From assembly GCF_046105845.1 (NCBI RefSeq), contig NZ_CP151004.1: DNA of 64,000 bases. The stretch is one strand, 5' to 3'. Position 1 is the stretch's first letter, and the number at the start of each line of letters is the position of its first letter. The DNA comes from Escherichia coli (GTDB lineage: Bacteria; Pseudomonadota; Gammaproteobacteria; Enterobacterales; Enterobacteriaceae). Below, one piece after another: positions 9,667 through 36,971 of this stretch. The notes below the pieces were generated by a model. The model did not search any database and was not told the DNA's origin. It saw nothing but the letters and a program-made list of their open reading frames with translations. The position numbers were made by a program, and so were the translations under genes.

Positions 9667-11043
9667 TTATTTCCGACGCAGCGTTTTAAACGCTACAAAC
9701 AGGAATACAATCCACACTGGCAGCAGAATCGCTGACAAGCGCATATCATCCATCGTGCACATCAGCAGCAAAATCATGCCGAGGAAGGCGATGCAGAGAT
9801 AGTTGCCGAACGGATAGAGCAGCGCCTTAAACTGTGTTTCACGTCCCTGACGTCGCATCGCCGCGCGAAAACGCAGATGCGCCAGGCAGATCATAATCCA
9901 GTTCAACAGCAGCGTTGCTACCACCAGCGCCATCAGCAGACCAAACGCTTTTTGCGGCAGCAGATAGTTGATTAACACCACCAGCGAAGTGATGGCTCCG
10001 GAAAGCATCAGCGAGTTAATCGGCACGCCGCGACGGCTGACGCGAGTCAAAAACTTCGGTGCATTACCCTGCACAGAAAGGCCAAACAGCATCCGACTGT
10101 TAGAGTAAACCCCGCTGTTATACACCGATAATGATGCTACCAGAATGACGAAGTTCAGCGCAGAAGCTACCACGTTGCTGTCGAGATTATGGAAAATCAT
10201 CACAAACGGGCTACTGTTGGATTTCACTTCCACCCACGGATAGAGTGCCAGTAAAACCACCAGTGAACCGATATAAAACAGCAGGATTCGATACACCACC
10301 TGATTCACTGCTTTCGGGATGCTTTTTTCCGGATCGCGCGCTTCAGCCGCAGTAATCCCAATCAGCTCCAGACCGCCGAAGGAGAACATAATTACCGCCA
10401 GCGACAAAATCAGCCCATTCCAGCCGGTGGCGAAGAAACCACCGTAGCGCCAGAGGTTGTCGATACTGGCTTTCTCGCCGCCGTGACCAGAAAACAGCAG
10501 CCACAGGCCAAAGCCGATCATACCGATGATTGCCAGCACTTTAATCAGCGCAAACCAGAACTCGGTTTCGCCATATAAGCGCACGTTCACCAGGTTAACG
10601 GCGTTGATGATAATAAAGAAGGCGGCAGCCCAAATCCACGTTGGAACATCCGGGAACCAGTACTGCATATAGATGCCCGCAGCGGTCAGCTCTGCCATTC
10701 CCACCAGCACGAACATTACCCAGTAGTTCCAGCCAGAGAGGAAGCCCGCAAACGGTCCCCAGTATTTATAGGCAAAGTGGGCAAATGAACCGGATACCGG
10801 CTCTTCGACCACCATCTCGCCGAGCTGGCGCATAATCAGGAAAGCGATGATCCCGGCGACGCCGTAGCCCAGCAATACAGCCGGACCCGCCATCTGAATC
10901 GCCGGGCCAATGCCAAGAAACAGACCAGTACCAATTGCGCCACCCAGCGCAATCAGTTGAATATGACGGTTATGTAATCCGCGATGAAGCGTCGGCTCTT
11001 GATTCGACGCAGTATCTTCCGATACGGTTGACGCGTTTTTCAC
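9667..11043 (-). CDS. pheP: Phenylalanine-specific APC family permease PheP (458 aa, GTG start)
   Basis: Product ...KNASTVSEDTASNQEPTLHRGL...; start placed at GTG (plus-strand cac 11041-11043) to match the known MKNAS... N-terminus. Confidence 0.9.
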   Translation of the reverse strand: MKNASTVSEDTASNQEPTLHRGLHNRHIQLIALGGAIGTGLFLGIGPAIQMAGPAVLLGYGVAGIIAFLIMRQLGEMVVEEPVSGSFAHFAYKYWGPFAGFLSGWNYWVMFVLVGMAELTAAGIYMQYWFPDVPTWIWAAAFFIIINAVNLVNVRLYGETEFWFALIKVLAIIGMIGFGLWLLFSGHGGEKASIDNLWRYGGFFATGWNGLILSLAVIMFSFGGLELIGITAAEARDPEKSIPKAVNQVVYRILLFYIGSLVVLLALYPWVEVKSNSSPFVMIFHNLDSNVVASALNFVILVASLSVYNSGVYSNSRMLFGLSVQGNAPKFLTRVSRRGVPINSLMLSGAITSLVVLINYLLPQKAFGLLMALVVATLLLNWIMICLAHLRFRAAMRRQGRETQFKALLYPFGNYLCIAFLGMILLLMCTMDDMRLSAILLPVWIVFLFVAFKTLRRK

Positions 11044-33370: not shown

Positions 33371-33840
33371 ATATATTCCTTCAATCTCATTTATCGACTC
33401 CACATCCGTATATAACCGATTACTTTATTTAAGACACTTATAGTAGTAAATTCCTTTTTATCCTCTAAGAATGTCTTAATTGAAAATATGCACTCTATTC
33501 TAAAAAATAGAGAGCCCCGTTAGATGAATACTTCCGCGCAAAATATATTCAACACAAATATAGACCTGAAGCGGTAAATTACCAGGCTGAAAATTCTTTT
33601 TATATTGTCAGGTATTTCTTAAATTATCTTAATCCTTTGACAAGGAAATAAGTCAGTTCCAGATTTACAACGCCATCATGGACGAAAAATGAAGCTTTCA
33701 ATCTCAGCGACAGTGCGCCTCACCTTCGCACGAGGTCGCTTCACGCGATAAATCTGAAACGAAACCTGACAGCGCGCCCCGCTTCTGACAAAATAGGCGC
33801 ATCCCCTTCGACCTACGTAACAGATGGAATCCTCTCTCTG

Positions 33841-34707
33841 ATGGCAGCAAAGATTATTGACGGTAAAACGATTGCGCAGCAGGTGCGCTCTGAAGTTGCT
33901 CAAAAAGTTCAGGCGCGTATTGCAGCCGGACTGCGGGCACCAGGACTGGCCGTTGTGCTGGTGGGTAGTAACCCTGCATCGCAAATTTATGTCGCAAGCA
34001 AACGCAAGGCTTGTGAAGAAGTCGGGTTCGTCTCCCGCTCTTATGACCTCCCGGAAACCACCAGCGAAGCGGAGCTGCTGGAGCTTATCGATACGCTGAA
34101 TGCCGACAACACCATCGATGGCATTCTGGTTCAACTGCCGTTACCGGCGGGTATTGATAACGTCAAAGTGCTGGAACGTATTCATCCGGACAAAGACGTG
34201 GACGGTTTCCATCCTTACAACGTCGGTCGTCTGTGCCAGCGCGCGCCACGTCTGCGTCCCTGCACCCCGCGCGGTATCGTCACGCTGCTTGAGCGTTACA
34301 ACATTGATACCTTCGGCCTTAACGCCGTGGTGATTGGCGCATCGAATATCGTCGGTCGCCCAATGAGCATGGAACTGCTGCTGGCAGGTTGCACCACCAC
34401 CGTGACTCACCGTTTCACTAAAAATCTGCGTCACCACGTAGAAAATGCCGATCTGTTGATCGTTGCCGTCGGCAAGCCGGGCTTTATTCCTGGTGACTGG
34501 ATCAAAGAAGGCGCAATTGTGATTGATGTTGGCATCAACCGTCTGGAAAATGGCAAAGTTGTGGGCGACGTCGTGTTTGAAGACGCGGCTAAACGCGCCT
34601 CATACATTACGCCTGTTCCCGGCGGCGTTGGCCCAATGACGGTTGCCACGCTGATTGAAAACACGCTACAGGCGTGCGTTGAATATCATGATCCACAGGG
34701 TGAGTAA
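33841..34707 (+). CDS. folD: Bifunctional 5,10-methylene-tetrahydrofolate dehydrogenase/cyclohydrolase FolD (288 aa)
   Basis: [30 protein letters not shown]... Confidence 0.95.
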
Positions 34708-34708
34708 C

Positions 34709-34921
34709 ATGGCGACATTTTCTTTAGGTAAACATCCGCACGTTGAGCTGTGCGACTTGCTGAAACTGGAAGGCTGGAGCGAAAGCGGCGCGCAGGCGAA
34801 AATCGCGATTGCCGAAGGCCAGGTGAAAGTCGACGGTGCGGTTGAAACGCGCAAACGCTGCAAAATCGTTGCCGGGCAGACAGTGAGTTTTGCCGGTCAC
34901 AGCGTACAGGTTGTTGCCTGA
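34709..34921 (+). CDS. ybcJ: S4-like RNA-binding protein YbcJ (70 aa)
   Basis: MATFSLGKHPHVELCDLLKLEGWSESGAQAKIAIAEGQVKVDGAVETRKRCKIVAGQTVSFAGHSVQVVA; ATG 1 nt after the folD stop. Confidence 0.85.
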   Translation: MATFSLGKHPHVELCDLLKLEGWSESGAQAKIAIAEGQVKVDGAVETRKRCKIVAGQTVSFAGHSVQVVA

Positions 34922-35028
34922 TCCCTTTCCCGGCCTGTAACAACAGGCCGGTTCTCTTTTCAGACTTTTGCCCTCTACGCCCCGTTCATCCATGCTGATA
35001 GCATCGACATTTTGCCGAAGCGATCATC

Positions 35029-35550
35029 ATGCCAACCGTTATTACGCACGCCGCCGTTCCCCTTTGCATTGGTTTAGGGTTGGGTTCGAAAGTCATCCCT
35101 CCGCGTCTTTTATTTGCCGGAATCGTCCTGGCGATGCTGCCTGATGCCGACGTATTGTCGTTTAAATTTGGCGTTGCTTACGGCAATGTTTTTGGTCATC
35201 GCGGGTTTACCCATTCGCTGGTGTTTGCGTTTGTTGTCCCGCTGTTATGTGTGCTGATTGGACGTCGATGGTTCAGGGCTGGGCTGATTCGCTGCTGGCT
35301 GTTTTTAACCGTCTCGTTGTTATCGCACAGCTTGCTGGATTCGGTAACCACTGGCGGTAAGGGCGTTGGCTGGCTGTGGCCGTGGTCAGATGAACGCTTT
35401 TTCGCTCCCTGGCAGGTGATTAAAGTCGCGCCGTTTGCATTGTCTCGTTACACCACGCCGTACGGACATCAGGTGATTATTTCTGAATTGATGTGGGTAT
35501 GGTTGCCGGGGATGCTACTGATAGGAATGTTGTGGTGGCGCAGACGATAA
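35029..35550 (+). CDS. ybcI: Inner membrane protein YbcI (173 aa)
   Basis: ORF 35029..35550, polytopic membrane protein; synteny. Confidence 0.85.
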   Translation: MPTVITHAAVPLCIGLGLGSKVIPPRLLFAGIVLAMLPDADVLSFKFGVAYGNVFGHRGFTHSLVFAFVVPLLCVLIGRRWFRAGLIRCWLFLTVSLLSHSLLDSVTTGGKGVGWLWPWSDERFFAPWQVIKVAPFALSRYTTPYGHQVIISELMWVWLPGMLLIGMLWWRRR

Positions 35551-35585
35551 CCGGATGCGAAAACTCGCATCCGGCAATAGCGCAA

Positions 35586-36971
35586 TTACTTACGACGCCA
35601 GGTGGTCCCTTGCGGGCCATCTTCCAGCACGATCCCCATCTCGTTAAGACGGTCACGCGCCGCATCTGCCGCCGCCCAGTCTTTCGCTTTACGGGCATCC
35701 AGACGCTGTTGAATTAACGCTTCAATCTCAGCCACTTCACTGTCGTCTGCCTGCGCGCCGCTTTGCAGGAACGCTTCCGGTTCTTGCTCCAGCAGGCCCA
35801 ATACAGCGGAAAGTTTACGCAGATGAGACGCCATTGCATTCGCCGCTGCCATATCTTCTGCTTTCAGACGGTTCACTTCACGGGCCATATCAAACAGCAC
35901 GGAATAGGCTTCCGGGGTGTTGAAATCGTCGTCCATCGCTTCAATAAAGCGCGCTTCAAACGCTTCGCCACCGGCAGGCGCAACGGTTTTATCTGTGCCA
36001 CGCAGCGCAGTGTAGAGACGCTCCAGCGCCGCACGTGCCTGCTTCAGGTTCTCTTCGCTGTAGTTCAGCTGGCTGCGATAGTGGCCTGACATCAGGAAGT
36101 AACGCACGGTTTCCGCGTCGTAGTATTTCAGCACATCGCGCACGGTAAAGAAGTTACCCAGCGATTTGGACATCTTCTCGCGGTCAACCATCACCATCCC
36201 GGAGTGCATCCAGTAGTTTACATACTGACCATCATGGGCACAGGTGGACTGCGCGATTTCATTCTCGTGGTGCGGGAACATCAGGTCAGAACCGCCGCCG
36301 TGGATATCAAAGTGGTTACCCAGCTGCTTGCAGTTCATTGCCGAACATTCAATGTGCCAGCCTGGACGGCCCGCGCCCCACGGAGACGGCCAGCTCGGTT
36401 CGCCCTCTTTCGACATCTTCCACAGAACGAAGTCCATCGGGTTGCGTTTGTCATCAACCACGTCAACGCGCGCGCCAGCCTGCAACTGGTCGAGATCCTG
36501 ACGCGACAGCACGCCATAAGTTGGATCGGTCGGTACGTCAAACATCACGTCGCCGTTGTCCGCCACATAAGCGTGACCTTTGGCGATAAGTTGCTCAGTG
36601 AGTTCAATAATTTCTGCGATATGGTGCGTCGCGCGCGGCTCCATATCCGGGCGCAGAATGTTCAAAGCATCAAAATCTTTGTGCATTTCGGCGATCATGC
36701 GATCCACCAGCGCTACAAAGCTTTCGCCATTTTCATTGGCGCGTTTGATGATTTTGTCATCGATATCGGTAATGTTACGCACATACTTCAGCTTATAGCC
36801 GAGGAAACGCAGGTAACGCGCAACCACGTCAAAGGCAACAAAGGTACGCCCGTGACCGATATGACAGAGATCGTAAACGGTGATTCCACACACGTACATG
36901 CCGACTTCCCCGGCGTGAATAGGCTTAAATTCCTCTTTTTGGCGTGTCAGAGTATTGAAGATTTTTAGCAT
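35586..36971 (-). CDS. cysS: Cysteine--tRNA ligase CysS (461 aa)
   Basis: [44 protein letters not shown]... with HIGH and KMSKS motifs. Confidence 0.95.

Follow-up and report, generated by a model that had tools for sequence, protein, structure and literature searches.

What kind of control region separates the sfm fimbrial operon of Escherichia coli from the divergent gene folD: a silenced promoter, an invertible switch, or the relic of a dying operon? The preliminary description of the window (the whole 64,000-nt stretch of DNA analysed here) had presented the spacer as a long, strongly AT-rich, non-coding control region of a horizontally acquired, nucleoid-protein-silenced operon. The anatomy, composition, conservation, indel boundary, and absence of inversion reported below come from the present analysis, and H-NS occupancy, H-NS repression, and the effect of SlyA were taken from the literature.

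The spacer measures exactly 470 bp from the sfmA start to the folD ATG, as first described (Table 1). SfmA is an ATG-started protein of 180 aa, 100% identical to K-12 SfmA, and the same sfmA/folD pair is found in the K-12 and strain C4 annotations. At the spacer, the chromosome of the window shares 99.9% identity with strain C4 and 98.9% with K-12, and it is reversed relative to the K-12 map. Beyond sfmA, the minus strand carries sfmC, sfmD, sfmH/fimH, and sfmF, with fimZ convergent with sfmF. The five structural genes and fimZ are intact open reading frames both here and in K-12, and the GC content of the fim/sfm cluster is 44.9%.

Table 1. Features of the sfmA-folD spacer and its surroundings (positions are those of the window)
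Feature	Position	Strand	Basis or remark
argU, tRNA-Arg UCU	26776-26852	-	Other boundary of the sfm-fimZ insertion
fimZ	27095-27727	+	Only regulator gene kept in the cluster; 72% identical to Salmonella FimZ
sfmA	32828-33370	-	Start codon (complement) at 33368-33370
sfmA-folD divergent intergenic spacer	33371-33840		470 bp, 38.7% GC overall; sequence and open reading frame list
AT-rich tract	33373-33690		Composition and rank; corresponds to the published folD/sfmA promoter island
H-NS consensus TCGATAAATT, 9/10 match (TCGATAAATg)	33388-33397	-	Inside the sfmA leader
Predicted sfmA -10, TATATT	33557-33562	-	Projection of the Salmonella +1 and hexamer list
Stretch aligned to the Salmonella FimZ footprint (putative)	33599-33638	-	Degenerate AATAAGA-like boxes TTAAGAT, TTTAAGAAAT, and ATAAAAAGA
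GC-normal, fast-evolving stretch	33691-33765		41-58% identity to relatives
H-NS consensus, 8/10 match (gCGATAAATc)	33745-33754	+	Core CGATAAAT
Predicted folD core promoter	33766-33794	+	Promoter scan and 16-taxon alignment
Predicted folD 5' leader	33795-33840	+	GGAAT...CTCTCTCTG before the ATG; highly conserved
folD	33841-34707	+	ATG at 33841

The composition of the spacer is uneven. The tract next to sfmA (31.4% GC, against 51.4% for the window) is the lowest-GC stretch of the 64 kb: segments of 318 bp that are equally GC-poor make up 0.06% of the total, and every one of them overlaps this tract. The folD-proximal 150 bp (33691-33840) have a GC content of ~54%, so that the strong AT-richness first ascribed to the whole 470 bp holds for ~320 bp only. 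The AT-rich part contains seven -10-like hexamers, compared with a window mean of 1.7. The spacer was confirmed as non-coding. Its open reading frames are only 20-48 aa long and lie in parts that are poorly conserved, or deleted or diverged even in E. albertii; these small frames were considered as genes and rejected as spurious because the parts that hold them are deleted or diverged even in that species. An Rfam scan of positions 24000-36000 (E <= 1) matched argU alone and nothing in the spacer, so the spacer contains no known RNA element.

At the folD end, the promoter scan predicted a promoter of the sigma-70 type, consisting of a -35 element CTGACA (33766-33771), a 17-nt spacer, and an extended -10 element TGaCAAAAT (33786-33794). 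In an alignment of the folD upstream region from 16 taxa, this promoter block is invariant from E. coli to Serratia, and the sequence upstream of 33766 is lineage-specific. The promoter is also present in sfm-less E. coli. Over the 75-bp folD core (33766-33840), identity to the window is 96% in E. albertii, 87% in Salmonella, and 87% in C. werkmanii; in the spacer outside this core, it is 50-66%, 41-54%, and 35-46%, respectively. Between E. coli and E. albertii, SfmA is ~75-80% identical and FolD 99%, and the sfm regulatory region and SfmA thus diverge far faster than their flanks. From the promoter scan and the alignment, we infer that the invariant block functions as the folD promoter, and the 75 bp at folD would represent an ancestral core-genome promoter with its leader. 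Two regulatory units make up the spacer and adjoin each other back to back: the promoter and leader of folD, which are ancestral, and the edge of the fim/sfm insertion.

The extent of the insertion was determined by comparison with other genomes. Among 5,424 complete genomes of E. coli that gave a match, 4,184 carry the whole region, with an identity of at least 95% in the spacer, and ~23% are without the cluster. In the remaining E. coli genomes, the match begins only at window position ~33703 or ~33757. In one sfm-less E. coli genome, argU and folD are direct neighbours at a distance of 270 bp, and in another, IS elements abut folD. The junction alignment placed the breakpoint to the sfm-less genomes at ~33757 on the folD side; on the other side, ~115 bp adjoining argU are near-identical in sfm-less and sfm-positive strains. 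The next ~70-100 bp of the argU-folD spacer (sfm-less locus L002, 5815-6084, compared with window 26853-27094) aligned poorly, at ~60-65%. This divergence on the argU side is above the E. coli norm, which may mean that the 'empty' allele is old or was imported by recombination.

The surroundings of folD were also inspected in a FolD-based genome scan, which covered a haphazard sample of Gammaproteobacteria to which Salmonella did not belong; the Salmonella locus (L085) was found by homologue search. A tRNA-Arg(UCU) gene lies 180-400 bp upstream of folD, in divergent orientation, at 17 of 25 loci among the matches listed. This adjacency was seen in Kluyvera, Enterobacter, Leclercia, Superficieibacter, Erwinia, Pantoea, Photorhabdus, and Rosenbergiella, and further in Salinivibrio, Photobacterium, Vibrio, and Aeromonas. 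Among the taxa sampled, the cluster stands between argU and folD only in E. coli, E. albertii, Salmonella, Citrobacter, and Pseudocitrobacter. Since argU and folD are adjacent across most of the sampled Gammaproteobacteria, adjacency is taken as the ancestral state, and since few genera have the cluster, it is taken to have been inserted beside a tRNA gene long ago. The ~395 bp of the spacer outside the folD core would be the edge of this ancient fim/sfm insertion of ~6.9 kb between argU and folD.

In published work, sfm is described as orthologous to Salmonella fim, which occupies the same locus; sfm predates the split of the genera, and phylogroup B2 and E. fergusonii have since lost it (PMC3559732, PMC3604780). 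The earlier wording 'horizontally acquired' is therefore apt for an ancient insertion relative to the ancestral gene order, and not for a recent gain by E. coli, as the cluster is shared with Salmonella, Citrobacter, Pseudocitrobacter, and E. albertii. Panyukov and Ozoline proposed Salmonella as the donor (PMC3661553); this proposal is not favoured here because Citrobacter, Pseudocitrobacter, and E. albertii also have the cluster at this site. The argU flank (~25900-26852) carries no prophage in the window, and in strain C4, which is near-identical, argU is followed by envY. In K-12, the argU flank is occupied by the 21-kb DLP12 prophage with intD.

Published binding and expression data bear on the silencing of the operon. 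The spacer is the promoter island '557105_351 folD(-)/sfmA(+)' in Table 1 of Panyukov and Ozoline 2013, where it is associated with foreign-gene predictions (PMC3661553). The K-12 position 557105 and the length of 351 correspond to window positions ~33350-33700, that is, to the AT-rich tract. The island was H-NS-bound in the ChIP-chip sets of Kahramanoglou and Oshima, and it was scored 'K', not 'A', with H-NS occupancy absent from some published datasets (PMC3661553). As a listed member of the promoter islands, it does not differ from the others: it is AT-rich, dense in promoter-like signals, H-NS-bound, and transcriptionally silent. According to Korea et al. 2010, as cited in PMC5797941, sfm is cryptic, poorly expressed in the laboratory, and repressed by H-NS, and the operon promotes adhesion to eukaryotic cells when it is placed under a constitutive promoter. 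Overproduction of SlyA raised sfmHF transcripts 2.6-fold (PMC5797941). The view of the operon as silenced by a nucleoid protein is thus borne out on a literature basis, by the published H-NS ChIP-chip (PMC3661553) and by the H-NS repression and SlyA effect (PMC5797941).

The spacer was also searched with the high-affinity H-NS consensus TCGATAAATT as quoted in PMC3661553. Two matches were found (Table 1), and motif enrichment relative to composition-matched shuffles was marginal (P = 0.06). Taken together, the AT-rich ~320 bp are very probably the H-NS-silenced promoter and leader of sfmA, a region of transcriptional control standing back to back with the ancestral folD promoter. H-NS would coat the AT-rich DNA and keep sfmACDHF silent in the laboratory, and sfm expression would need SlyA-type anti-silencing, activation by FimZ, or both.

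That the spacer is the control region of sfm, as had been assumed, is supported by its position and by its orthology with the experimentally mapped fimA promoter of Salmonella at the same locus (PMC3203922). In Salmonella, the motifs AAAATAAGA and ATTAAAAGA lie at -100 to -92 and -51 to -43 of fimA, and the FimZ footprint covers -98 to -47 (PMC3203922). These motif positions place the fimA +1 at L085 9807, the footprint at 9709-9760, and the length of the leader at 194 nt, within a folD-fimA spacer of 546 bp (L085). When projected onto the window by alignment, the footprint falls on the stretch given in Table 1 and the fimA +1 at ~33554. The block 33545-33639 is 54% identical to the Salmonella footprint and core promoter, with a 12-bp gap between the AAGA boxes, a weak match. 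Transcription of sfmA is predicted to start at ~33550-33554, with a leader of ~180 nt (33371-33554).

The sigma-70 scan of the sfmA strand returned no -35/-10 pair that passed, and this strand has four competing -10-like hexamers, those at 33497-33502 and 33542-33547 among them, so the sfmA start is uncertain. Given the identity of 54% and the 12-bp gap, control of sfmA by FimZ is not established in E. coli. A weak match without a -35/-10 pair fits an activator-dependent sfmA promoter. FimZ would bind the degenerate AATAAGA-like boxes ~45-85 bp upstream of the predicted start, as it does at the orthologous fimA of Salmonella.

The two regions have much in common. In Salmonella enterica, the fimA region likewise lies between folD and a divergent major-subunit gene, where it is controlled by FimZ, FimY, FimW, Lrp, and H-NS. 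Both have a long leader (194 nt in Salmonella, ~180 nt predicted in E. coli), AATAAGA-like boxes upstream of a weak promoter, and fimZ at the far end of the cluster, and neither inverts. The differences are that the spacer of E. coli, at 470 bp, is 76 bp shorter than that of Salmonella, at 546 bp, that the pilin-gene flank is 68.5% AT in E. coli vs 61.8% (PMC3661553), that the sequences outside the folD core are as dissimilar as given above, that E. coli is without fimY, fimW, STM0551, and fimI, and that sfm is cryptic, unlike the Salmonella promoter with its natural expression. The spacer was already known both as a catalogued promoter island and as a diverged ortholog of the Salmonella fimA promoter region. 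Added here are its separation into 75 bp and ~395 bp, the genome-wide inversion test, and the ancestral adjacency of argU and folD across Gammaproteobacteria.

As previously described, fimZ lies at the far end of the operon next to argU. The fimZ-argU interval is 242 bp (26853-27094), compared with ~2.9 kb in Salmonella L085, and holds no fimY, fimW, or STM0551; tblastn with Salmonella FimY, FimW, and STM0551 gave no match in the 64-kb window. No remnant of fimI was detected by tblastn or blastn in the sfmA-sfmC gap, and the gene is absent from the window. In Salmonella, the fimA promoter is controlled jointly by FimZ, FimY, and FimW, and it is inactive in E. coli (PMC11316696). With fimY, fimW, and fimI lost, the E. 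coli circuit is partly decayed, in line with its crypticity. In the literature searched, no paper with natural sfm expression or with FimZ binding at sfmA in E. coli was found.

Three minor observations concern the leaders and the neighbouring gap. The sfmA-sfmC gap (32609-32827; 219 bp, 34.7% GC) is the site of fimI in Salmonella and Citrobacter, and a SELEX peak of the RpoH holoenzyme has been reported in this spacer (PMC5493296). Putative hairpins in the minus-strand RNA of the sfmA leader are located at 33429-33479 (UUAAGACA...UGUCUUAA) and at 33490-33515 (CUCUAUU-loop-AAUAGAG, followed by AUAUUUUC), and neither shows clear conservation in E. albertii. A structured sfmA leader RNA (~190 nt) was considered and found unconvincing: the folding z-score was -1.78, and 12 of 200 shuffles folded as well. 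The relatives are too diverged for covariation. The Salmonella fimA leader contains an annotated gene of 64 aa (L085 9817-10011) that overlaps the fimA start, has no Pfam match, and is probably spurious.

The same pace of divergence and loss could be read in another way, in which the AT-rich tract is a drifting relic of a dying operon, bound by H-NS merely for its AT-richness and with no working sfmA promoter or FimZ site. Divergence is indeed very fast: identity to E. albertii is 58-66%, compared with 96% in the folD core, and that to Salmonella is 41-54%, compared with 87%. The losses of fimI, fimY, and fimW and the ~23% of E. coli genomes that miss the cluster point in the same direction. 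Natural Sfm expression is without report, a deletion is present in the donor strand of sfmA (PMC3604780), and the AT enrichment relative to Salmonella was interpreted as mutational (PMC3661553). Against this, the five structural genes and fimZ have stayed intact here and in K-12, adhesion to eukaryotic cells is promoted by constitutively driven sfm, and SlyA raises the level of sfmHF transcripts, the last two as given in PMC5797941. Diversity of sfmA within E. coli is low (pi = 0.7%; PMC3604780), and the spacer is well conserved among its carriers, both of which also speak against a relic. We consider the relic unlikely and a silenced promoter region the better account. The comparison with Salmonella illustrates how a regulatory region loses its partners (fimY, fimW) and drifts towards AT while the structural genes stay intact.

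A third possibility is a switch like fimS, in which a promoter segment of ~300-350 bp in front of sfmA would be flipped by a tyrosine recombinase at inverted repeats. The spacer does contain an 8-nt perfect inverted repeat, ATTTATCG/CGATAAAT, at 33389-33396 and 33746-33753, which brackets 349 bp, a span that resembles the 314-bp fimS element (PMC11316696). This is the longest perfect inverted arm in the spacer at a spacing of 100-500 bp and the only inverted repeat with a spacing of ~350 bp that was found, and the pairing is not significant. Among 300 dinucleotide shuffles, 8 nt was the commonest outcome (138 shuffles), and 122 shuffles (41%) had arms of at least 9 nt. The search for repeats of 9 bp or longer thus upheld the initial impression that no flanking inverted repeats are present, the maximum of 8 nt being within chance.

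The window does not contain the fimS repeat TTGGGGCCA. In strain C4, which is 99.9% identical, neither the cluster nor the 12 kb flanking it on each side carry an annotated recombinase gene, and in K-12, the only nearby integrase is intD of DLP12. Inversion was also searched for directly by flipping 33397-33745 between the 8-nt repeats and comparing this query with 5,424 complete E. coli genomes. The inverted form across the junctions was found in none of the 5,424 genomes, and the direct form was found in 4,184, which agrees with the initial view that there is no invertible switch. The orthologous Salmonella promoter was likewise reported not to invert (PMC11316696). A fimS-like switch is effectively refuted and is given next to no probability. 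The ATTTATCG/CGATAAAT repeat represents the H-NS motif core and not a site for a recombinase.

Control by competition of Dam and Lrp at GATC sites, as in pap, or by slipped-strand repeats has equally little to recommend it. Lrp binds four sites in the orthologous fimA promoter of Salmonella (PMC3203922), which would suit a pap-like switch, but the 470 bp of the spacer contain no GATC at all, compared with 4 per kb in the window. As to slipped-strand mispairing, homopolymers do not exceed 6 nt, and the only tandem repeat is (CT)4, which stands just before the folD ATG in the ribosome-binding region. The Dam and slipped-strand versions are refuted by the sequence itself, and their probability is negligible. 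The control of sfm is transcriptional and does not rely on DNA inversion, Dam methylation, or slipped-strand repeats.

Among other fimbrial systems of E. coli, fimS of the type 1 fimbriae is similar in being AT-rich, associated with H-NS and Lrp, ~300 bp long, and located upstream of a chaperone-usher major-subunit gene. The sfm spacer differs from it in having no 9-bp inverted repeats, no gene of the fimB/fimE type in the cluster, and no inverted form in the 5,424 genomes. The cryptic yad, yeh, and elf/ycb operons of K-12 (Korea et al. 2010) belong with sfm in phenotype: they too are poorly expressed, repressed by H-NS, and raised by SlyA, and the spacers upstream of yadN, yehD, and elfA are likewise listed as promoter islands (PMC3661553). 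Unlike these operons, sfm has a linked response-regulator gene, fimZ, and adjoins a tRNA gene.

The spacer is a case of the textbook type, an anciently acquired fimbrial operon silenced by H-NS beside a housekeeping promoter, and in this respect it has little wider importance. As its acquired part of ~395 bp and its ancestral part of 75 bp are cleanly separable, it offers a handy natural system in which to ask how silencing ends before it reaches a neighbouring core promoter. The inverted pair with the CGATAAAT core is specific to E. coli, and its outer site lies 13 bp from the folD -35 element. It might be imagined that a bridged H-NS hairpin nucleated at this pair encloses the sfmA promoter and leader and ends at the boundary, so that folD escapes, possibly along with some coupling between the fimbrial operon and folD. 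We regard this as rather improbable.

The folD promoter also overlaps a regulatory site known from Salmonella. The 'Lrp-binding motif 1' of Salmonella PfimA (GCTATTTT, at -308 to -301) was reported to be essential for fimA activation (PMC3203922), and GCTATTTT is the sequence of the invariant folD -10 (33789-33794) in reverse complement. The site corresponds to window 33789-33797 and to L085 9499-9507 in Salmonella. The published gamma mutation (PfimA1225) replaces exactly the folD -10 bases, and the mutant was described as forming small colonies with faster-growing extragenic suppressors, in a paper that never mentions folD (PMC3203922). Because Lrp motif 1 overlaps the folD -10, the gamma phenotype may partly reflect a damaged folD promoter; judged from the sequence overlap, a contribution of a folD promoter defect is plausible. 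If Lrp motif 1 and the folD -10 are one and the same element, the promoters of the fimbriae and of one-carbon metabolism may be coupled.
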